From a virus, in the IMG/VR virus record IMGVR_UViG_3300037504_000888, positions 39,265 to 103,264 of that record: a DNA stretch of 64,000 nt; one strand, given 5' to 3'. The translations under genes were made by a program, and so were the position numbers. Below the pieces are notes generated by a model. That model was not told the origin of the DNA. It made no database searches and saw only the letters and a program-made list of their open reading frames with translations. Below, in pieces: positions 3,645 to 40,235 of the stretch (its first letter is position 1; each line of letters starts with the position of its first letter).

Positions 3645-6521
3645 ATGTCCGAGTGGGACTCCTTTTTCAAACACGCTCGCGTCAAGACGAAGCTGAAGTC
3701 CCATCAGGAGCGCGTCGTCGAGCGTATGAAGAGCGAAGACCAGCCGGGGTTGGTCGTCGCTCATGGGCTTGGTAGCGGCAAGACGCTCACGTCCATTGCT
3801 ACGCAGGACGCCCTGGGCTTGCCCGCTACGGTGGCCGTCCCAGCGGCGCTGCAAGCGAACTACCGCAAGGAGATGGACAAGCACCTCGAAGGCACCAGCC
3901 CTGAGGCGTCCTTGACTACCTTGCAGCGCATCAGCCGCGCCGGCGACATCGGCCACGCCAACCCCATGTTGGTGGTCGACGAAGCCCACAAGGCCCGTGA
4001 GATCAACACGAAGACGTACAAGGCGTTGAAGAAGGGTATTGAGAATACCGACAAGCGGCTGCTACTCACCGCCAGCCCCTTCTACAACCGGCCGAACGAC
4101 ATCGCCCCACTCGTAAACCTGGCCGCCGGCGAGACCGTCCTCGAGGCGCACCCGACGGACTTCAAGAAGAAGTACGTCAAGGAGCGCGTCATCAAGCCAG
4201 GGCTCATCGGCAAGTACGTCAAGGGCGCGCAGCCCGGTGTTGTCGAGGAGCTGAATCCCAAACAGAAGGCGTTCCTCGAGGGCACCTTCCGTAAGTGGGT
4301 CGACTACCACCCGAACTCGACTGAGGGCTTCCCCGAGGTGAAGCGGCAGCAGGTCGAGGTGCCGATGACGCAGCGCCAGCTTCAGGCGTACGACGCCATG
4401 ATGGGTACGGCGCCGCCCTGGCTGGCACACAAGGTGAAGAAGGGCCTGCCACCCAGCAAGCAGGAGTCGAAGGAGCTCAACGCATTCATGAGTGCGGTGC
4501 GGCAGATCTCGAACACCACCCGTGGCTTCTCTCCTGAGGAGAAGCCGCAGGAGCCGAAGATCGAGACCGCCTTCAACCGCATGCAGGACACGCTGAAGAA
4601 GGACGAGGATGCCAAGGGGGTCGTCTACTCGAACTTCCTCGAGTCGGGGCTCAAGCCCTACAAGGAACGGCTGCAGAAAGCCAACATTCCGTTCGGTGAG
4701 TTTACCGGCGATATGAAGAAGAAAGAGCGTGACCAGCTCGTTCGGGACTACAACGAGGGTAAGAAGAAGGTCCTGCTCCTCAGTTCCGCCGGTGGTGAGG
4801 GGCTTGACCTAAAAGGCACACGGCTCATGCAGGTCATGGAGCCGCACTGGAATGCGGAGAAGCTCAAGCAGGTGGAAGGCCGCGGGATTCGCTTCAAGAG
4901 CCATGACCACCTGCCTCCGGAGAAGCGCAACGTCACAGTGGAGAACTACCTGGCGACGCGGCCTCCACGGAAGGGGCTCTCGAAGCTGGTGCTAGGCAAG
5001 GATAGCGGCGGCAGTTCCGACCAGTACCTACGGCAAATGAGCGAGGACAAAGAGAAGCTCATCAAGCAGTTCAGGAGCCTCATGGAAGACGACCAGGAGA
5101 AGACCTCTGCGGCGACCAAGTTGGTGAGCCCAGACCTCTTGGCGCTGCCACATAAATACGACCTGACACCAGGAAGTAGCTCCGCGAAGAAGGTAGATCA
5201 CATTGCTGAGGAGTTTGGAGAGTCCGGCTACGACATGGAACGACCACCGCTGGTGGGGTACGAGGTGGCGCCCGATGACATCCAGCTACTTGATGGAGGG
5301 CACCGCGCTCAAGCAGCTCAACGGGCGGGCATTGACGTGCCCGTGCTGGTGAAGTCTCGAGACGCTATGCTAGCGGCACGTGACACCCCCGAGTGGGAGG
5401 CGTTTGGGCACACCGACACCCCAGCCAAGGATCTGTTGAGCGATGGGAAGACAACTATGAACGCAGCCGACATCGTCAAGGAAGCCAAGACCCTCGGCGG
5501 CTTCTACAAGGGCAAACCGAGTTCTCCCGACACGGTGAAGAAGACCGTGGAGTTTCAGGGCCTGAAGATCAAGGTGGATCGCCCCAAGGGGTTCATCATG
5601 TTCGGTGAGGACTCCAAGGGAGAGGAGTGGAAACGCAAGTACAAGGTCGACTACGGCTTCATTCCCAAGACCGTGGGCGGCGACGGTGATGGACTCGACG
5701 TCTTCATTGGACCGAACAAGAAGAGCAAGAAGGCGTTCTGGGCCGTACAACGGAAAGACGATGGCACCTTTGACGAGTACAAGGTCTTCGTCGGCTTCGA
5801 CAACCGCGACGAGGCGGTGGCTTGCTATCGGGCGCACATCCCGAAGAAGTACTTCGGGAGGATGATCACTATGACGGTGGAGATGATGAAGGCAATGCTG
5901 GGGACCAACCCTGACGAGGTCGTTGAGGGTGTAAAGACAGCGGAGTGGGCTGGCTTTTTCGACGAGGTAAACAAGCTAGCCGCGCTGGTTCTCCCAAACA
6001 AGGCTCGGGGCTTCATGGGGCGTGCTGACGAGCTTTTGCAAGGGGGACGGGTGGGCAAGTTGAAGGACGTAGCAGAAGAGGCCGTGCGTACCGCCAGGCT
6101 GGTTGACCCCTCTACACAGGGAGGGGAGGCTGAGATCATGCGACGGGCGTTCGAAAACGTCGCCAACAAGGCCAAGAAGGAGAGCAGGTCTGAGGCACGC
6201 AAGGTGCTTGGTGCCCGCGCGGGCCTAACTACCGCCGTTGCGGGCACCGGTGTGGGTGCAGGTGTCGGCGGTGGGATGCTTCTCAAGAAGAAGCTGCAAC
6301 CTGGGGAGAAGACGGTGGAGGCTGCTTCCAAGTTGGCCGACTCCAGCGTCTTCATGGACGACCCTCGCATGGCGCAGCAGATGGCTATGATGCGTCGGCA
6401 GCAAGGCCACCCCGGCATGCCCCCGCCCATCACCAACCTCAAGCACCCTGGTAACAAGCACCTGAAGCTGGCGTTGCTCGAAGCCGCTATTCAGGGCACG
6501 GCGGGAGTCGGGAGTGTCTGA
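3645..6521 (+). CDS. Polyvalent protein: SNF2-family helicase + ParB/Srx-like domain + inorganic pyrophosphatase-like domain + Gly-rich tail
   Basis: HGLGSGKT, VVDEAH, LTASP, SAGGEGLDL, QVEGRGIR (SF2/SNF2); PPLVG...LLDGGHRAQAA (ParB); DYGFIPKT..GDGDGLDVF...DEYK (PPase-like). Confidence 0.8.
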   Translation: MSEWDSFFKHARVKTKLKSHQERVVERMKSEDQPGLVVAHGLGSGKTLTSIATQDALGLPATVAVPAALQANYRKEMDKHLEGTSPEASLTTLQRISRAGDIGHANPMLVVDEAHKAREINTKTYKALKKGIENTDKRLLLTASPFYNRPNDIAPLVNLAAGETVLEAHPTDFKKKYVKERVIKPGLIGKYVKGAQPGVVEELNPKQKAFLEGTFRKWVDYHPNSTEGFPEVKRQQVEVPMTQRQLQAYDAMMGTAPPWLAHKVKKGLPPSKQESKELNAFMSAVRQISNTTRGFSPEEKPQEPKIETAFNRMQDTLKKDEDAKGVVYSNFLESGLKPYKERLQKANIPFGEFTGDMKKKERDQLVRDYNEGKKKVLLLSSAGGEGLDLKGTRLMQVMEPHWNAEKLKQVEGRGIRFKSHDHLPPEKRNVTVENYLATRPPRKGLSKLVLGKDSGGSSDQYLRQMSEDKEKLIKQFRSLMEDDQEKTSAATKLVSPDLLALPHKYDLTPGSSSAKKVDHIAEEFGESGYDMERPPLVGYEVAPDDIQLLDGGHRAQAAQRAGIDVPVLVKSRDAMLAARDTPEWEAFGHTDTPAKDLLSDGKTTMNAADIVKEAKTLGGFYKGKPSSPDTVKKTVEFQGLKIKVDRPKGFIMFGEDSKGEEWKRKYKVDYGFIPKTVGGDGDGLDVFIGPNKKSKKAFWAVQRKDDGTFDEYKVFVGFDNRDEAVACYRAHIPKKYFGRMITMTVEMMKAMLGTNPDEVVEGVKTAEWAGFFDEVNKLAALVLPNKARGFMGRADELLQGGRVGKLKDVAEEAVRTARLVDPSTQGGEAEIMRRAFENVANKAKKESRSEARKVLGARAGLTTAVAGTGVGAGVGGGMLLKKKLQPGEKTVEAASKLADSSVFMDDPRMAQQMAMMRRQQGHPGMPPPITNLKHPGNKHLKLALLEAAIQGTAGVGSV

Positions 6522-7054
6522 TGAACCTGAAAGCCCTCATCGCCGTCCTTCTCATCCCCGCCACGACCTATGCCGGCGGGGATGACGTCGTCAAGCGCCC
6601 GGAGATTCCGGTGCCGCAACTCACACTGAAGTACGCCCCTGAGCCACTCATTCCAGTGCCCGACGGGGACGACAAGATCGAATTCGTGCGCCAGGGTGAT
6701 GAGGTCCCGTTCAGCGGCCAGCTCTTCGACCCGGCTACGGCGCTGCGCTGGGCTCACTACCTGCAGCAGGCCAAGCTCCGGCTCAAGGAAGACGTGGTAT
6801 ACGAGCGTCGCGTCTGCAACGCCCACCTCGACTACCTGGGCAGTCGGCTCGAGCTCGAGGTGGCCTACAGCGAGGCCGTGGAGAAGGACCTCCGCGCCCG
6901 CGTGTTGGATCTTGAGCAGCGAAACTCCGACATGCAGGAGGAGCTCCGTAGCCCACCCTGGCACAAGTCCAGAGCATTCGGCATAGCTATCGGAGTAGTG
7001 GGAACGTCGCTCGTCGCAGGCCTTAGTGCCTGGGCGGTCATCGAGTCTAGGTAA
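6521..7054 (+). CDS. Secreted coiled-coil protein with C-terminal TM (possible spanin-like lysis accessory)
   Basis: Signal-peptide-like N-terminus (MNLKALIAVLLIPATTYA), heptad region, C-terminal hydrophobic helix. Confidence 0.35.
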   Translation: MNLKALIAVLLIPATTYAGGDDVVKRPEIPVPQLTLKYAPEPLIPVPDGDDKIEFVRQGDEVPFSGQLFDPATALRWAHYLQQAKLRLKEDVVYERRVCNAHLDYLGSRLELEVAYSEAVEKDLRARVLDLEQRNSDMQEELRSPPWHKSRAFGIAIGVVGTSLVAGLSAWAVIESR

Positions 7055-7063
7055 GAGGTAACA

Positions 7064-10021
7064 GTGGCAATCAAGATCAAAGTAGATCAATCTGGAAAGC
7101 CAGTTGGTGTAGCGGGGCAAGCGCGCGAGGACCTCGATCTGGCTGCCGCTGTTACGCTTACAGCGGTCGACGGAGTAGCGGTTACGCAATACCAGTGGGA
7201 GGTTGTTTACGCTCCCCCAAACGAAGCGCTTACCGCCCCAAGTGGGTCGACGCTATCTGCCCCAACCGCCTCGAGTACGACGATCACGCCCGACAACAGG
7301 GGAACCTACTTGATTGATCTACAGGTCAATCAAGGCTTCGGACTTGGTGCTCGCGAGGATGACCGCGCGCGGATCACCTTCTACGCTGGCCCAGCTCTCA
7401 ACTCGGACCCGACGAAGCTCCCTAGGCGGCGACTTGCCGCTTTTGAAACGCGGGAACACAACGTTCCCGACGCGGTGGAGCCCGGAGGGAACGAAAACGG
7501 CTGGGCGCGCGAGTGGGAGAGATGGTTTCGTGCAGTCGAAGCGGCTTTGACAGCGCAAACCCCAACGCTGGCTAATTCCGTTCTGGCGTCGATCGATGGG
7601 GTGACCACTCTTTGGTCGAAGATCACGAATGCCATGGTCGATTCCGCCGCTGGGATCGAGTGGACGAAGTTTCTCGGGGTTGGAACCGAGATCTACGAGC
7701 CGTCAGGGTGGCCGCAGGCTGGCGAAGCGAATGACGCAAACGTAACCCTCAACTACGTGGAAGGGACGCGCACTCTCACACTGACCCACGCTTCGGACTA
7801 CTCGTTCTGGGCAGCAGGACAGCGCTTCACGAAGACGGCGAACGAGAGCATCGTCTGGCCCGACTTCAGCGGAACGCACTTCTTCTACTTCGACAACACG
7901 GGCGCGTTGCAAACCACGCAGAGTACGGACACGTGGATCAACGAAGCGATCGGTGGTGATGGTTGTCCGGTCGCAGCGCTGTACTGGAACGCGACCGAGG
8001 GCGAGGTCTTGTGGATGCTCGACGAGCGCCACGGGATGATGCCTGGCGAGACGCACAAGTGGGCGCATGAGGCAATCAGTGCACAATGGATCGAGGGTGG
8101 CGCGCTCAGTGGGTTCACGTTTGGAGACGGCTCTCTAGACGCACACGCTCAGTTCGACGTCGAGAACGTCATCATCCGCGATGAGGACATTCGCGTCAGT
8201 GTTGTCGCAGGTGACCCCCGCACGCAGACAATGAGCCCCGCCACGATGCGTGGTTACTTCAAGCTCGGCAGCGAGTGGAACTACAAGGACCCGGATGGCT
8301 TCGCTTGCTTGCAGGGAGGCGCGAGCTACCAAGGAGGGACTGTTCCGGCGGGTCGCCTGCGGTACAACGAGATCACGGGCGGTGTCGGGACGATTCCAGA
8401 AGTGCCGAACAACAACGCAGTTCTCGCTCACATCGGGGTGACGACAGAAGGCTCTGGCTATTCCGCTGACGGAAGCTCTACCAACTGGCGCCTCTTCTAC
8501 GTGGTGGGACAGGGTGCTTACGGCACCGTTGGCGACGCGAAGAATGCCGCCCTTCTCGAGCTGAACCAATTGCAGCTGGACGGCTTCCCGCTGGAAGAAG
8601 TCGTGTGGCTCGGAACGGTAGCGTTTCAAACGCGGAACACAGACGCCAATGCGGTGTCGGCACACCTGGAGCAGCCGGATGATGCGCTAGGGAATCCGGT
8701 GGACTACATCGACCAGCGCAACCCGAGCGGGCTTGCAGGTGGAGGAGGAGGCAGTGGCGGTGTCACCGACCACGGACTGCTCACGGGGCTATCAGATACC
8801 GCCGACCACACCTGGGCTCTGCTTGTCGATGGCACTCGACAGGCAACGTATCTCGACGCGCTGAACTACCTGACCATCGGTACGAATGCCGCTGCGAGCG
8901 GCGTAGTTCGAGTCGCGAATGCTGCGTACCACAAGGCACGCAACGCGGCGAACAGCGCTGACCTGAGTCTGCTGGGGCTCAACTCATCCGACGAACTAGA
9001 GCTTGGCGAATCTGGAGTCTCCAACATTACAGCTACCGCATCGACGGCGTTTCAGGCGTCTGTCGGTGGCGTCACCAGAATGATCGTTCAGGGCTCATTC
9101 ACGTCGTTCTACAGCAGTCTCTTGCTAGCTGGCGACTACGTGAGCATCGGAGTGAATGCGGCAACGACCGGAGCGCTCCGCCTGGTGAGCCAGGGGTATA
9201 TCAAGGCACGAAACGCTGCGAACAGCACCGACCTTACGCTCATTGGTCTGAACATCACCGACAGCATCGACATCGGCAGCACTAGCGTTTCGAACATCAC
9301 CAACTACTCATCCTCGTCGTGGCAAGCATTCGTAGGCGGAGGCACACGAGCGAACATTGGATCGTCCGAAGCCACGTTCTACACGAACGTCAAGCTCGGA
9401 AGCACCTACATCTCAGTTGGACCTGCGGCAGCAGCGAGTGGACCTGTTCGCATAGAGCAAGCGAGCTACCTTACCTCACGGAACGCTGGGAACACGGCAG
9501 ACATCGAGCTGATCGGCGTTGCAGCGTCCGATGTCGTTACCCTTGGCACTTCAACCGCTGGAGGCTTCAAGGCGTTCGTGGGGGCAGGCGGTAGCTCGGC
9601 GGTGTTCGACATCGGCGGTGCATCAATCCTCACGCTCACCGAGACCACGGCCGAGTTCGCGTTCAGTGGCGGCAACATCAACCTCGGTGTGGGCTTCATT
9701 TCCGTTGGTCCGTCGCCCGCGCAAAGCGGAGGGTTGCGACTACCCAATGCGGTATGGGTCAAAGCTCGCAACGCTGCGAACAGCGCCGACCTCACAATCA
9801 TCCGCCTCAATTCGAGCGATCAAGTTGAAGTCGGGCCAACGGGAGACGCAGCACTGGAGACCATGAGCGATCGAGTGCACATCTACAAGTTTCTCCAGCT
9901 CTCATCCGTCACCCCACCGTCAGGCACGCCGAGCGGTAGTGATTGGTGGTTCTATGCAGCGTCGGACGGCTTGCACGCGGTGAGCCCTAGTGGAACGGAC
10001 ACAATCATCGCGTCCATCTGA
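7064..10021 (+). CDS. Tail fibre protein with four ~90-aa internal repeats
   Basis: 985 aa Gly/Ala/Ser/Thr-rich; DHGLLTGL..DH fibre motif; ARNAANSADL-type repeat x4. Confidence 0.7.
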   Translation: MAIKIKVDQSGKPVGVAGQAREDLDLAAAVTLTAVDGVAVTQYQWEVVYAPPNEALTAPSGSTLSAPTASSTTITPDNRGTYLIDLQVNQGFGLGAREDDRARITFYAGPALNSDPTKLPRRRLAAFETREHNVPDAVEPGGNENGWAREWERWFRAVEAALTAQTPTLANSVLASIDGVTTLWSKITNAMVDSAAGIEWTKFLGVGTEIYEPSGWPQAGEANDANVTLNYVEGTRTLTLTHASDYSFWAAGQRFTKTANESIVWPDFSGTHFFYFDNTGALQTTQSTDTWINEAIGGDGCPVAALYWNATEGEVLWMLDERHGMMPGETHKWAHEAISAQWIEGGALSGFTFGDGSLDAHAQFDVENVIIRDEDIRVSVVAGDPRTQTMSPATMRGYFKLGSEWNYKDPDGFACLQGGASYQGGTVPAGRLRYNEITGGVGTIPEVPNNNAVLAHIGVTTEGSGYSADGSSTNWRLFYVVGQGAYGTVGDAKNAALLELNQLQLDGFPLEEVVWLGTVAFQTRNTDANAVSAHLEQPDDALGNPVDYIDQRNPSGLAGGGGGSGGVTDHGLLTGLSDTADHTWALLVDGTRQATYLDALNYLTIGTNAAASGVVRVANAAYHKARNAANSADLSLLGLNSSDELELGESGVSNITATASTAFQASVGGVTRMIVQGSFTSFYSSLLLAGDYVSIGVNAATTGALRLVSQGYIKARNAANSTDLTLIGLNITDSIDIGSTSVSNITNYSSSSWQAFVGGGTRANIGSSEATFYTNVKLGSTYISVGPAAAASGPVRIEQASYLTSRNAGNTADIELIGVAASDVVTLGTSTAGGFKAFVGAGGSSAVFDIGGASILTLTETTAEFAFSGGNINLGVGFISVGPSPAQSGGLRLPNAVWVKARNAANSADLTIIRLNSSDQVEVGPTGDAALETMSDRVHIYKFLQLSSVTPPSGTPSGSDWWFYAASDGLHAVSPSGTDTIIASI

Positions 10022-20978: not shown

Positions 20979-21294
20979 TCTTCTTGAGCTCCTTCTTGAG
21001 TAGGGGGGACATGGAGAAGGATACCGCAAAGTAGGCGTCGACGTAGCGTTTGTACTTCACGTCGGGGTTGTGTTTGCTCGCCAGCTCGAACATCTTCTTG
21101 CGCTTGACCTTGGTGACAGTGACTTGTCCCAGCCGAGGAAGAGCGACGGTGCCCTCCTCGACCAAGGTTTCGCGAGCAGCCTCGATGAACAACTTGGTGA
21201 TGAGCGATACGCTCTTTCGGTCCATGCCAAGCTGTGCGGCGACGCGACTGTCTAGAACGAGCTTGGTTCTTTGGCTGTGGTTCTGGTCTCTCAC
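20956..21294 (-). CDS. HU/IHF-family DNA-binding protein
   Basis: VAAQLGMDRKSV..I...FIE....LVEEGTVALPRLG...VSFSMSPLLKKEL. Confidence 0.75.
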   Translation of the reverse strand: MRDQNHSQRTKLVLDSRVAAQLGMDRKSVSLITKLFIEAARETLVEEGTVALPRLGQVTVTKVKRKKMFELASKHNPDVKYKRYVDAYFAVSFSMSPLLKKELKKNGKARSR

Positions 21295-21794
21295 TTGGCC
21301 TCACCCCAGGAATCTCCGACGCCCGCTTCGGCCTCCATGGGACAGGCAAGCTCGATGGGGAACGGGTAGGTCATGATCTCCTCGATGTCCTGCTTTGCGT
21401 CCTCAACGTGTTCTGCTGGCACCTCGAAGACCAGCTCGTCGTGGACCTGCAGCACGATGTGGCAGTCGTACCGTTTATCTAGTCCGTAGGCGGCGAGGTT
21501 GAGCTGAGCCATGCGACAGACATCCGCGGCCGAACCTTGGATCTGGGTATTTACCGCCAAGCGCTCACCCAGGGCCTGCTGGTCCTTGCGGTTGCTGTCG
21601 ATCATGGGAATGTTGCGGCGGCGGCCCATCACGGTGAAGGCGTATCCGTACTTCTTGCCCTCCTCGATGGCCTCCTTCATGAACCGCTCAACGGCAGGGT
21701 AAGTCTTCTTGTACTGTTCGATCTTGGCAATGGCGACGTCCTTGTCGACGCCGAGGTCTCTCGCCAACTTGCCAGGACCCATACCGTAGTTCAA
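21291..21794 (-). CDS. polA: Family A DNA polymerase, exon 2 (end of motif B, motif C)
   Basis: LNYGMG, GY..TVMGRRR, AVNTQIQGSAAD, LQVHDELVFE. Confidence 0.9.
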   Translation of the reverse strand: MNYGMGPGKLARDLGVDKDVAIAKIEQYKKTYPAVERFMKEAIEEGKKYGYAFTVMGRRRNIPMIDSNRKDQQALGERLAVNTQIQGSAADVCRMAQLNLAAYGLDKRYDCHIVLQVHDELVFEVPAEHVEDAKQDIEEIMTYPFPIELACPMEAEAGVGDSWGEAK

Positions 21795-22530
21795 CGTGTT
21801 GTTCCCGAGTTTCCCCGGGCACTGACTATACCTTCGCTCTTGATTCCTTACAGGTGGAGCAATGAACTCCACGAGGCCCAGTGGGCTGGAAACTCGAACT
21901 GCAACTGGCACACTGCCGCGGTTTGAACCGAATCCTTTTCGGCAGGTTGTTCGCACAACCATGCTCGACCTGGTGGCACCGTTTGCACAGTACTTCCAGG
22001 TTGTTCGGGTCAGAGTTCCTCCGGTTTCCGTCCTTGTGATGGACGAGTACCGCGAAACGTCCGCAGCGAAGGCAGCGATCACCGTGAGCGGTAAACGCAA
22101 CCTTCTTGTAGTAGTCCGGCGAGGGGCCACCCTTCCAGGCGTTGTTGTTCGCGCCCTTCTGATTGTAGCCCTTGCGTTCGTACGTGGCGTGCCAGCGTTG
22201 CTTGCAAGATTCGAGATGATGTGCACGTCGGCATGGGGGACACCGTTTACAGTTCGCACCCGTCGGGATGAACTGTTCACCGCATCGGCTACATGTTTTT
22301 TCTTTCCGTTGAACATGTCCCATTCCTATGCGCATACTCAAGAGTGCCTGCCGTGTCAACGAGGGAGCGGGAGTGACTACCCTGCGCTGAAGCGCCCCAC
22401 GTTGAGGGGGCCGTCGCCCCCAAGTCGATACACTACCCAGAACGGTGGGCAGCACGGGATTGTCTTAGGCAGCGAGCCCGTAGAGTTCCCCGTTTTGAGC
22501 AGGTTTTACTTCGGCCTGACTGGTAGGTTG
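21795..22530 (-). mobile_element. Group I self-splicing intron (736 nt) in DNA polymerase motif B
   Basis: Exon ends ...TTCGGT, pairing with GCCGAAG (P1 with U-G at splice site); AAAACGGGGAA (P), AATCCCGTG (Q), TCGACT (R/P7), AAGGTATAGTC (S), P9 CCCGGG-GAAA-CTCGGG, terminal G; splicing restores KNIGFG|LNYG. Confidence 0.9.
21826..22323 (-). CDS. Intron-encoded HNH homing endonuclease with zinc fingers
   Basis: VHHKDGNRRNSDPNNLEVLCKRCHQVEH; NAWKGG; flanking CxxC pairs. Confidence 0.85.
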   Translation of the reverse strand: MGHVQRKEKTCSRCGEQFIPTGANCKRCPPCRRAHHLESCKQRWHATYERKGYNQKGANNNAWKGGPSPDYYKKVAFTAHGDRCLRCGRFAVLVHHKDGNRRNSDPNNLEVLCKRCHQVEHGCANNLPKRIRFKPRQCASCSSSFQPTGPRGVHCSTCKESRAKV

Positions 22531-24021
22531 ACCGAAGCCGATGTTCTTGGCGTCAGAACGGTAGGCCGCGTGGTCCACCAGGTACTCCAACAGGTTGGCT
22601 CCGGCACGTTGGGTGATGCCGGGGCTCAACTCTTCCGCCTTCATGGCGAGATCGGCGGGGTCCATCGACGCAGCGTCCTTGCTGAGTTTCTTGCCGGCAG
22701 CGACGTCCTCGTAGATGGTGTCGTACATCAGCGCGGCGTTGCCGGAGTGGATATCCCAGCTCCGTAGGAAGATGTCGATCATCGGTTTCTCCATGGCGGC
22801 AGCTGCCAGGAGTCGCATCTCCAGCTGCGAGTAGTCTGCTGCGATTACCTTCCAACCAGGCTCGGTGATGAATGCACTGCGCAAGTTCCAGTGGTCATTC
22901 TCCGGGCGCGGGATGTTCTGGAGGTTCGGGTCGCTCGAGCTCAATCTTCCCGTCCTGGCGACGTCCTGATTGAAGTTCGAGTGGATACGGTCGTAGGGGT
23001 CGAGTAGCTCATGCAGGCCGTCTATGTATGTGCCAAGCAGCTTCGTGTACTCGCGGTGCTCCAGGATGAGCGCTGCTACCGGATCGTGGTTCTTGTAGTA
23101 CTCGAGGAAGGGCTCATTGCACTGAGGTTTTCGGACGCCGCTCTTACCGCCGCTCGTCATCGATAGTGGAGTGAGGTTCGCGATCTCGAAGAAGTACCTC
23201 TGCAGCTGCGGAGTACTTTTGGGGTTGAGCATGAAGCCTGCCTCACGAACGATGTCGCGCTCGATCTGTCGAATCTTGGCGTGCGCTTCGGGACGGGCTG
23301 CCTCGAACTGCGCGCGGTTGACTTTGATGCCACGCCGCTCCATTGCCCACAGCGCCTTGGTGTAAGGCACCTCGACGCGCTCGAAGAAGTCCCAGAGTGT
23401 TGAGATGTAGGGTGGGACGTTCGTGAACAGCGAGTAGGTGTACTCACCCTGCAGCGTTTGTTTGAGCGACTCCCAGCACTTCAGAGTGCCCCAGGCGTCG
23501 TTGGCGGCGTACTCTACCAGCAGGTCGAAGTTTTCCCGCTCGGCGCGCATGATGACCTCTTCTGCGCTTTGCTTCTTGCCGATCCTCCCGAACGTGTCCT
23601 CGAAGTCGGCCCAGGTCCATCCGAGGATGTGGTTGGCGATGAACTTGAGCTTGTGAGGCTTGTCCTCGTACAACAGCGCATGCATCACCTGTACGTCGTG
23701 CCAGTCGCCGGTGATGTTGAGGCCGTAGTTCGCCAGCATGTGCATGTCGAATTTGGCGTTAGCAAGAATCCAGGTCTTCGATGGGTCGGCGAACGCCCTC
23801 TGGCAATGAACGAGCACATCCGCTCGTAACGTCGCTCGGCTGTTGCCCCAAGCAACTGACCAGTAGAGAGGTACGTCGCCCCACTTACTGAGGCCCGTTG
23901 TCTCGGTGTCGATGGCGATGTGCTTCTCGCCCTCGATGGCGTTGACTAGGTACTGGATCTGGTCGTGAGTAGAGTCCCTCGACACGTACAGCGTGTCGGG
24001 CATATCGATGTTCCAGCTCAT
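22531..24021 (-). CDS. polA: Family A DNA polymerase, exon 1 (3'-5' exonuclease, motif A, start of motif B); spliced product 664 aa
   Basis: GGAGGTGG RBS; IAIDTETTG, ANAKFD, YAANDA, TGRLSSSDPNLQNIP, ADYSQLEMR, RSDAKNIGFG. Confidence 0.9.
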
Positions 24022-24039
24022 TCCACCTCCTATCGGGGA

Positions 24040-24068
24040 GGCCCGCCCCGGGTTCACCGGGGCGGACC
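24040..24068 (-). other. 12-bp GC hairpin between the SSB-like gene and the polymerase RBS
   Basis: GGTCCGCCCCGG-TGAAC-CCGGGGCGGGCC; no U-tract. Confidence 0.6.

Positions 24069-24090: not shown

Positions 24091-24093
<3 letters not shown>
24073..24093 (-). repeat. (TAG)7 tandem stop codons flanked by CAG codons
   Basis: + strand (cta)7; minus strand CAG CAG (TAG)7 CAG. Confidence 0.95.
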
Positions 24094-25452
<1,359 letters not shown>

Positions 25453-38825: not shown

Positions 38826-40235
38826 TCAAGTGCGGTAGTTGCCGCTGAAGGGGTCTTGTACTTCTTGTCGCTTGTCGCAGACGACCATCTTGCCCCACGG
38901 TGCCGGACGGCACGAGTAAGGCGTGCGGACAATGCACCACACCACTTCGAGGCCTCGAGGCTGGTGCTCCGGGGCAGGACCGGCTCCATCGGTGAAGAAC
39001 ACCAGCAAGTTCGGTCGTGGTCGAAGTTGCATTACCTTCTGGAAGACGGGGATGAAGTTCGTGCCACCACGGCCCTTGTAGCTGATGGATGGCATCTTTC
39101 GCAGACTGATGCGCTCGCAGCGCTCTACCTGCGTGTCCGCCTGGATGAGCCACGCCTCCTGTAGTCCCATCTTCTTCAGCAGGTGGTAGCCCTCACTACG
39201 CGCCTCAATGAGCTGGTCGGTGCCCATGGAGAGCGAGGTGTCCTCAGCGATGGCAACGAGCACGCGCTGACTGACGACGCCCGAGGACGTCACGCCGACG
39301 AGCGCTCCACCTATGCTGGGGTTGCGCATGGAGAAGTCGCTGCATCCAGCCACAATCTCCTTGCTGCGGCGCAGGACTCGTTTGAGTTCACGGCGCCAGT
39401 CGACCTCCGGCGCCTTGATCTTGGTCTGAATGAGCTGCTCGAATCGACCGGGGACGGAGCCCCGGCCGAATTGCTGCATGTGCTCTTCGATGCGGTCGAG
39501 CGTGGTGCGGCGGATGGCATCGACTTCGGCCTCGCTCTTGCCGTATTGCGCGTCGAGTTCCTGCTCGATGTGGTCGAAGAGCGTCGAGCCGGCGCCGGAA
39601 CCGCAGGTACCAGCGCCTATCTTCTTCTGCCAGCCCTGACCGCTTCCGGTGCCGCTCTCTGGCTGCTGTTCGCCTTTGCCTTTCTTGCCCTTGTCACTGT
39701 CGGTGTCGGGGTTAGGTGGAGGATTGCCACCCATGGCGCAGTTCATGAACTGCTGAAGCTGCTGCTGTTGCTGTTGCATCTGACGAGAGAGCAGCTCGTA
39801 GTACTGTTCCATGGTCAACCCCGGCGGGTGGTTAAACTTCTCCGGGTAGACGACCCACGTAGGAAGCTTCCATCCCTCCTCTCGTAGGTTGTAGTTGATG
39901 GCTTCGTCGCCGGCGATGTTGGCCAGGTCCCCGTTCGGTAAAGCCTCGATGCGGTCGAAGCCGCGCAGTGGGTGCTCCACCTCGTGGTAGAGGCAGGCAC
40001 CCAGGACCTCGTCAGGGTTGGAGCCCGGCTCCGTAGGGTTGAGTTCCGGGTCGTTGAGCAGCCACTCGCCGTTTACGTAAAGCACCAGACCTTTGGTGAT
40101 GCCCATCGTTACCCCCTTGTACGGAACGATGATGGGCGTCATCTCGAGCAGGGTGCTGGCTACATACTCTGCATAGTACAGTATGTAGCCACGACCTTGG
40201 GCTAGCTTGTTGAGGGCATCGGATTCTATGCTCAT
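38826..40235 (-). CDS. DUF2201-like metallopeptidase + VWA domain protein
   Basis: YHEVEH, NIAGDEAIN, MIDAS DTSLSM, GRGGTNF, FFTDG. Confidence 0.8.
   Translation of the reverse strand: MSIESDALNKLAQGRGYILYYAEYVASTLLEMTPIIVPYKGVTMGITKGLVLYVNGEWLLNDPELNPTEPGSNPDEVLGACLYHEVEHPLRGFDRIEALPNGDLANIAGDEAINYNLREEGWKLPTWVVYPEKFNHPPGLTMEQYYELLSRQMQQQQQQLQQFMNCAMGGNPPPNPDTDSDKGKKGKGEQQPESGTGSGQGWQKKIGAGTCGSGAGSTLFDHIEQELDAQYGKSEAEVDAIRRTTLDRIEEHMQQFGRGSVPGRFEQLIQTKIKAPEVDWRRELKRVLRRSKEIVAGCSDFSMRNPSIGGALVGVTSSGVVSQRVLVAIAEDTSLSMGTDQLIEARSEGYHLLKKMGLQEAWLIQADTQVERCERISLRKMPSISYKGRGGTNFIPVFQKVMQLRPRPNLLVFFTDGAGPAPEHQPRGLEVVWCIVRTPYSCRPAPWGKMVVCDKRQEVQDPFSGNYRT

Follow-up and report, generated by a model that had tools for sequence, protein, structure and literature searches.

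The DNA analysed here, called the window, is a stretch of 64,000 nucleotides (nt), positions 39,265 to 103,264 of the IMG/VR virus record IMGVR_UViG_3300037504_000888, which is an incomplete metagenomic contig of 103 kb (~55% complete) from a tidal-flat metagenome. On its minus strand lies the gene for a family A DNA polymerase (PolA) of an uncultured phage, which is interrupted at 22531|22530 and at 21795|21794, exactly where an earlier note, made from the letters alone, had placed the ends of a group I intron. The list of open reading frames (ORFs) shows the gene in two parts, a fragment of 530 amino acids (24057..22465) and another frame, in which the polymerase resumes over the final 168 codons (21794..21291). 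The first fragment matches the Pfam domains DNA_pol_A_exo1 and DNA_pol_A, the latter at profile positions 4-203, and the second matches DNA_pol_A at positions 218-381. The mechanically called ORF opens at GTG 24057; ATG 24021 is the likely start, since its reading (MSWNIDM) matches the homologs. Both exons are intact, with all catalytic motifs present. The frame of exon 1 continues into the insert for 21 codons (QPTSQAEVKPAQNGELYGLAA) and then meets TAA, and exon 2 has no upstream start codon or ribosome-binding site of its own.

Removal of the insert joins GGT to TTG and yields ...RSDAKNIGFG|LNYG..., the product that the earlier note had derived. The intronless homologs P0002-P0004 (72-76% identity) read HRSDAKNIGFGLNYGMG across the junction, identical to the predicted ligation product. 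BLASTP of the conceptually spliced protein against the translated polA of E. coli MG1655 places the junction at G763|L764 of E. coli Pol I, with R754, K758, F762 and Y766 aligned around it without a gap, which puts the break within motif B (the O-helix), in agreement with the note. A phmmer match of exon 1 to the PDB ends before motif B because this PolA carries an insertion there.

Ribozyme structure and a family of inserts at one codon

The RNA of the insert contains all the helices of a group I core in canonical order (the P3-P7 pseudoknot, the P4-P6 domain and P8; Table 1). At the 5' splice site, the exon and the internal guide form P1 with the U·G pair U22531·G22515, which is U·G in 13/13 members of the family described below, and UCAG at 22519-22516 can pair with UUGA of exon 2 (P10). 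The last nucleotide of the insert, G 21795, is likewise G in 13/13 members, and a G-C pair in P7 is the presumed guanosine-binding site. P2 is absent in all members. P7.1 and P7.2 sit between P7 and P3', an arrangement characteristic of subgroup IA2. Another hallmark of IA2 is a G-U-A linker between these two hairpins (PMC3428280), which is absent here, P7.1 (…GCCCCC) directly abutting P7.2 (UCAACG…). Because this linker is missing, the intron is filed as group IA, close to IA2 yet atypical of it. The wobble pair in P1, the core elements, the extra IA-like hairpins after P7 and an HNH ORF in the P8 loop had all been described from the sequence in the earlier note, and each was recovered. Two other pairings were rejected: an extension of P7 (UAU with GUG), in which GU(G/A/C) covaries instead with its P9.0 partner, and an alternative P7 (UUGAC with GUCAG), which leaves ~70 nt in J6/7 and breaks the covarying base of P7.2.

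Relatives were sought by tblastn and pattern scans in IMG/VR and JGI contigs. Twelve further distinct inserts of 238-711 nt (L004, L062, L064, L065, L066, L067, L083, L084, L115, L170, L076 and L086) occupy exactly the same PolA codon in environmental phage contigs, making 13 loci with the window. Five of the 12 have no ORF and measure 238-298 nt each. The host polymerases are 33-47% identical to that of the window, as measured at 6 of the 12 loci. The pattern CCGTGCTGC-N8-30-GTATCGACT gave 271 matches in three big collections, of which ~20 are real introns and the others chance matches, which 18 fixed bases can be expected to give across hundreds of gigabases; L060 was discarded as one such chance match. 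The members have in common P1 (CUUCGGU with GCCGAAG), P3, J3/4 UCAAA, P4 (ACGGGG with UCCCGU), P5/P5a, P6, the 5' strand of P7 (CGACU), P3', P8, J8/7 AAGGUAUA, P7' AGUC(A)G, P9.0 and a GAAA-capped P9. In the AT-rich members L076 and L086, a single composite helix replaces P7.1 and P7.2. Every position that is invariant across the 13 members is also kept in the window copy.

Covariation within the family is strong. In the model-fitted alignment (n = 13), 94.7% of the cells of the 5' domain hold standard pairs, against 38-44% with the partners slid, and compensatory changes occur in 22 of its 42 pairs (86 cells); 0/500 shuffles reach the observed values. Across the family, P1 is paired in 96.7% of the cells, and P3 in 100%, with compensatory changes in 4 of its 5 pairs. 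A plain MAFFT alignment of P7, P9.0 and P9 gives 100% paired cells and compensatory changes in 6 of 13 pairs, and P9.0 reads UG/CA, UA/UA, UC/GA or CG/CG in different members. P7 itself is invariant in 13/13, compatible with pairing and silent as to covariation. Compensatory changes were counted in P3, P4, P5, P5a, P7.1, P7.2, P9.0 and P9; P6 and P8 have zero counted compensatory pairs and form in the fold or duplex of each member despite differing sequences. Since the alignment of the 5' domain leans to the model, alignment-free folding between invariant anchors was added, and it produced P6 and P8 in 13/13 members, P7.1 and P7.2a/b in the 11 close members, and the composite helix in L076 and L086. 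MAFFT misaligns P6, P7.1 and P8, for which the model-fitted alignment and the alignment-free folds were used instead.

The five ORF-less introns served to build a covariance model, R1, from which the window was left out and in which P7 was omitted because it forms a pseudoknot with P3. On the window, R1 matched 22540..22273 (168 bits, E 1e-48) and 21871..21787 (52 bits, E 4e-14), scores far above chance, in what are the 5' and 3' halves of the ribozyme flanking the ORF. No further copy of the intron was found in the 103-kb record.

Table 1. Positions in the window of the polA exons, the intron and its structural elements
Feature	Position	Strand	Description
PolA exon 1	22531..24021	-	3'-5' exonuclease domain and polymerase domain up to ...RSDAKNIGFG
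PolA exon 2	21291..21794	-	LNYGMGPG... via motif C to the stop codon
Group IA intron	21795..22530	-	736 nt; first base C22530, terminal G 21795
P1	22509..22537	-	exon CUUCGGU (22537-22531) with internal guide GCCGAAG (22515-22509)
P3	22347..22503	-	CCUGC (22503-22499) with GCAGG (22351-22347); encloses P4/P5/P6, P7 5' strand, P7.1, P7.2
P4-P6 domain	22434..22493	-	P4 22493-22488 with 22459-22454; P5/P5a 22484-22463; P6 22451-22434
P7 5' strand	22423..22427	-	CGACU; pairs with AGUC-A-G 21827-21822, bulged A
P7.1	22406-22421	-	hairpin; covarying helix
P7.2	22356-22405	-	branched, sub-hairpins a and b; covarying helix
P8	21835..22346	-	CACUCUUGA (22346-22338) with UCAAGAGCG (21843-21835); closes the ORF-bearing loop
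HNH homing-endonuclease ORF	21826..22335	-	in P8 loop; Zn ribbon / HNH / Zn ribbon
J8/7	21828-21834	-	AAGGUAU; 3' core
P7'	21822-21827	-	3' core
P9.0	21820-21821 with 21797-21798	-	UG/CA, two base pairs
P9	21804-21819	-	CCCGGG-GAAA-CUCGGG, GAAA-capped, six base pairs

Directly upstream of polA, also on the minus strand, is an ORF of 453 amino acids (24091-25452) with a long low-complexity Gln/Pro-rich tail (…QQQQQQQQQQQP…GGQQ).

The endonuclease gene and signs of mobility

The ORF in the P8 loop encodes 169 amino acids from ATG 22335, or 165 from ATG 22323, which is conserved in the family. Its product matches PHROG HNH families (best E 4e-9) and carries the catalytic His, Asn and His of HNH nucleases together with zinc-binding CxxC pairs. 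Among 30 homologs, three groups of residues show little or no variation: C15, C18, C32 and C35 of an N-terminal ribbon, C88, C91, H99, H100, N112, C117, C120 and H121 of the HNH core, and C142, C145, C159 and C162 (CxxC pairs) of a C-terminal ribbon. In the AlphaFold2 model (mean predicted local distance difference test score 82.6), two small ribbon modules flank a beta-beta-alpha core, and the best fold matches in the PDB are HNH domains (Cas5-HNH, phage GVE2 HNH, PacI and Cas9), with probabilities of 0.97-0.98 and weak E values of 0.01-0.04. About 40 homologs in a metagenome protein collection carry generic automatic labels only.

The stop codon of this ORF, UAG at 21828-21826, falls within J8/7. 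Many ORFs of the family end in ...KV, and their last codons and stop, AAG GUA UAG, are the conserved J8/7 element, so that the end of the endonuclease gene is written in the ribozyme core. Recoding of TAG, which would extend the ORF, was considered and found unsupported: TAG terminates 27 of the 86 long ORFs, and no tRNA lies in the window. As TAG is an ordinary stop in this genome, the ORF should end at 21828-21826.

Other members show further states of the endonuclease gene. The ORF-less introns L062 (2933-3230) and L065 (4284-4579) retain endonuclease remnants in their P8 loops, namely the GGAATG start region and a C-terminal coding stretch ...H.C..NLP... (...HDC..NLP...), and are thus deletion derivatives of ORF-bearing introns. 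Such remnants are the decay stage expected in a homing cycle. L076 (12061-12771) and L086 (6375-7051) have nearly identical ribozyme cores and unrelated P8 endonuclease ORFs, that of L076 being HNH_3 plus AP2-like and that of L086 a Zn-ribbon HNH of the window type with an in-frame TAA. In this pair, one endonuclease gene has been replaced by another within the same intron.

The Phe-Gly codons at the splice site are TTC GGT in 13/13 intron-bearing alleles, matching the requirement of P1, against GGA, GGC, GGG and GGT (GGT in 8/23) and both TTC and TTT in 23 distinct intronless viral alleles. The closest PolA (76% identity) is intronless. The P0005 protein (71% identity) ends in ...GFG, the truncation to be expected from an insertion at this codon, and P0054 (53% identity) has at its end the read-through peptide seen in the window. 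When the intron core is compared with the 450-nt exon flanks, the core is the more conserved in 66/66 pairs (mean 70% against 55% nt identity); between the window and L004 the values are 85% in the core and 59% in the flanks. This higher conservation would fit structural constraint, horizontal spread, or both. A lake-water contig carries the intron and ORF at ~87% identity over 737 nt, and there the neighbouring exon 2 sequence, over 310 nt, does not reach the 85% threshold for a match, a pattern that hints at a recent intron transfer and does not prove it. In the two DNA runs examined, no intron-less joint was seen.

Relation to known introns and inteins

Among proven self-splicing introns, the best cross-match of R1 is the group IA2 intron of T4 nrdD (sunY), which it hits just upstream of I-TevII with 38 bits (E 6e-10) and which the record annotates as a 'group 1A intron'. 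The T4 intron and the window family share P1 with its U·G pair, UAAAA after P1, P3 (U/C)CUGC with GCAG(A/G), J3/4 CUAAA/UCAAA, P4 ACGGG, the J8/7-P7' sequence GAAG(A/G)UAUAGUC (the GAAGAUAUAGUC element), the lack of P2 and the extra hairpins between P7 and P3'. They differ in the host gene (nrdD or polA), in the endonuclease, which in T4 is of the GIY-YIG type and lies after P9, whereas that of the window is an HNH protein in P8, and in the GUA linker between P7.1 and P7.2, which T4 nrdD has and which has no place in the window copy with its branched P7.2.

In phage Twort, R1 matched four places, two of them in intervening sequences of the large-terminase gene (E 6e-8 and 4e-6), which we take to be the orf142 introns. 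Two weak matches (E 2e-4) lie in an unannotated Twort gap (NC_007021.1 16658-17214; L343:1658-2214) between the virion structural gene ORF106 and the 'intron encoded nuclease' ORF018. R1 also gave 45 bits on an unannotated gap in polA of Listeria phage P70. This gap (NC_018831.1 33599-34521; L330:2497-3419) lies between the annotated 'DNA polymerase' genes gp38 and gp41, opens with a group I core, contains the HNH gene gp39 and interrupts motif A (SADFS|QQEPRLLA); the record annotates no intron there. In blastn against 50,697 phage records, the window intron had no match; the ORF-less L004 copy had only a 65-nt core match, in Listeria P70/LP-114 and Weizmannia Youna2, and the AT-rich L086 copy matched through exon sequence only.

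The polA intron sites listed by Kong et al. (2012; PMC3428280) are, in E. coli numbering, only 674 (SPO1, SP82, Bastille, Pf-WMP3), 676 (phiL7) and 881 (PhiI, W31). As placed by alignment, the insertion site 763|764 differs from all three, and the remark in the earlier note that the classic polA introns of SPO1-type phages sit further upstream holds (674 against 763|764; PMC3428280). The introns of SPO1, SP82, Bastille and Pf-WMP3, with I-HmuI, I-HmuII, I-BasI and I-PfoP3I, resemble that of the window as group IA introns that encode an HNH protein and interrupt the fingers subdomain of a phage polymerase of family A, and splicing and nicking have been demonstrated for them (PMC3428280). They lie at P674|N675, 89 codons upstream of the window site, and the Pf-WMP3 ORF is in P6a (PMC3428280), that of the window in P8. 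The phage PolA introns of PhiI and W31 (881) and of phiL7 (676) are likewise self-splicing, belong to IA2 and contain HNH ORFs (PMC3428280); they differ in site, being in motif C and in the PNLQ region, respectively. R1 gave no match on the whole genomes of SPO1, Pf-WMP3, phiL7 and coliphage 4HA13. The SPO1-type HNH proteins are not known to have flanking zinc ribbons. Full-text searches of the literature for group I introns within motif B, or the O-helix, of family A polymerases returned nothing specific.

With the HNH protein as the query, tblastn pointed to Escherichia phage vB_EcoM_4HA13 (Chaseviridae; NC_049466.2), whose DNA polymerase coding sequence is a two-piece join in RefSeq with an HNH gene inside; no paper on this intron was found. 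With the splice sites placed from the P1 U·G pair and the terminal G, the product is KTTNYA|LNGQYG, and motif alignment puts the insertion one nucleotide inside the codon that corresponds to L764, in phase 1 as against phase 0 here. The endonucleases of 4HA13 and of the window are homologous and share the layout of N-terminal Zn ribbon and HNH (hhalign probability 99.2%, E 9e-20). The ribozyme scaffold is a different one, with the ORF beginning right after P4', and the polymerase is very divergent, having no tblastn match to the window PolA. These relations point to an endonuclease lineage that may be specialised on motif-B DNA and live in more than one intron scaffold. A homologous HNH protein in a different intron one nucleotide away is indirect evidence that the window endonuclease may nick or cut the intronless allele near this site; the HNH specificity of its own that the earlier note proposed is likewise putative. 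The earlier view that the insertion site is a less common one is therefore right for the literature only, given 13 distinct loci and the RefSeq join one nucleotide away in 4HA13.

Inteins also occur in this PolA family. PF14890 is found in P0016, P0023, P0025 and P0053, and the L014 PolA contains two in-frame, stop-free inserts with C...HN|T/C boundaries (5162-6205 and 6329-7066), which are inteins, the first before TGRLSS and with an HNH-like domain, the second inside motif A (DY|..|QLEMR). Taken with the four PF14890 proteins, the L014 inteins make the polymerase family a hotspot for several kinds of selfish insert.

Alternative explanations and meaning of the intron

We consider the insert in the PolA gene of this uncultured phage to be a mobile group I intron (subgroup IA), with a probability of about 0.92. 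This reading is based on the restored frame, the conserved and covarying RNA structure, the homology to proven group IA introns, the intact HNH and zinc ligands, and the patchy presence among close relatives. From these we infer the splicing chemistry, the activity and target of the endonuclease, and homing, as follows. The transcribed RNA would fold into the group I core, and an external guanosine bound in P7 would attack the phosphate after U22531, held in P1 by the U·G pair with the internal guide. The 3' OH thus freed on exon 1 would then attack behind the terminal G 21795, which P9.0 and P10 hold in position, and ligation of GGU to UUG would restore the O-helix motif RSDAKNIGFGLNYG, so that full-length polymerase could be made; on unspliced RNA, translation would stop 21 codons into the intron and yield only a truncated product. 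In a co-infection, the HNH protein would most likely nick or cut intronless polA near the motif-B DNA, by analogy with I-HmuI, I-BasI and I-PfoP3I, and recombinational repair would copy the intron into the cut allele (homing).

Several observations weigh against this reading. No RNA run containing the intron sequence was found, and hence no spliced junction. The window copy has one A·C mismatch in P8 and one U·U mismatch in P7.2. Covariation cannot confirm P7 and the outer four pairs of P7.2, which are invariant, and the pair counts from alignment A3, which was fitted to the model structure, are biased towards that structure. The Pfam matches of the ORF product stay just under the curated cut-offs (HNH_3, 22.4 against 24.8; HNH, 19.6 against 21.4). 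The Rfam model RF00028 (Intron_gpI) gave no match on the window at the gathering score and no group I match on 21600-22700 at E<=10. On the ORF-less L004 and on L014, it gave none at E<=1 either, and the single Rfam row obtained was a chance match to CRISPR-DR7 (E 1.1). RF00028 tends to be weak on subgroup IA. The covariance-model search that the earlier note had proposed thus came out divided: RF00028 failed even at the relaxed threshold, and R1, built from the family itself, succeeded. Since only the family-built model matches, a rule that discards the proposal when no covariance-model hit is found would have wrongly rejected the intron.

It is very unlikely that the intron is decayed and no longer splices, which would make polA a pseudogene, or that its splicing depends on a trans factor. 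The copy has the single mismatches in P8 and P7.2, and the record is an incomplete metagenomic contig, both of which leave some room for such a state. Yet the window keeps all positions that are invariant across the 13 members and scores 168 + 52 bits on a model made from other copies, and both exons and the HNH ORF are intact, the exons with every catalytic motif and the ORF with every conserved ligand.

Still less probable is a polymerase that is truly split, with a free-standing HNH gene between two PolA genes, the polypeptides of which would come together without any RNA splicing, like those of some T4-like gene 43 splits. Gene callers indeed give two ORFs with an HNH gene between them, and the first codon of exon 2, TTG, is a possible start codon. 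However, no ribosome-binding site is seen before exon 2, and the break cuts the O-helix midway, with F762-G763 on one side and L764-Y766 on the other. At the same nucleotide, five relatives have an ORF-less insert consisting only of structured RNA of 238-298 nt, the flanks of the ORF form a covarying ribozyme, and the Gly codon is fixed as GGT, matching the requirement of P1. An intein, removed at the protein level, would have precedent in the inteins of this PolA family, but it is refuted by in-frame stop codons (the exon-1 frame hits TAA after 21 codons, and ORF-less copies stop at once), neither Hint nor intein motifs are present, and the frame arrangement of the HNH ORF is another one.

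One part of the intron may have a further role. The P7.2b loop, UAGUCACU (22379-22372), is nearly invariant, reading UAGUCA(Y)U in 11 of the 13 members on a covarying stem of three base pairs. The loop sequence (UAGUCAYU) copies the 3' strand of P7, UAGUCAG (21828-21822), and has two possible pairing partners, the P7 5' strand CGACU and the GUUGAC that lies at the P7.2 base. We think it unlikely that it pairs transiently with the P7 5' strand as a placeholder that keeps the core unformed until P7' is made. The real P7' lies >500 nt downstream, beyond the endonuclease ORF, and splicing would in that case be timed to the transcription or translation of the endonuclease gene, whose stop sits in J8/7. 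Alternatively, the loop could make an undescribed tertiary contact.

As a mobile group I intron, the insert is a textbook kind of element, and it leaves the basic picture of such introns in phage replication genes unchanged; it is part of a widespread, so far uncharacterised environmental lineage. What is new is the insertion point, the endonuclease subfamily, and a curated model that misses the family. G763|L764 is a fourth, well-populated polA intron site beside the three found in the literature searched. The Wommack laboratory is said to use F762 as a biochemical and lifestyle marker in metagenomic PolA surveys; the insertion site is one residue from F762, and gene callers truncate such polymerases exactly there. 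As Rfam misses a lineage that a small family model recovers, a negative Rfam search is no ground for calling a break in a split phage gene 'not an intron'. Finally, the family is a natural series for the homing cycle, with the endonuclease gene intact, decayed, swapped or lost, and with a related endonuclease in an unrelated intron at the same site.

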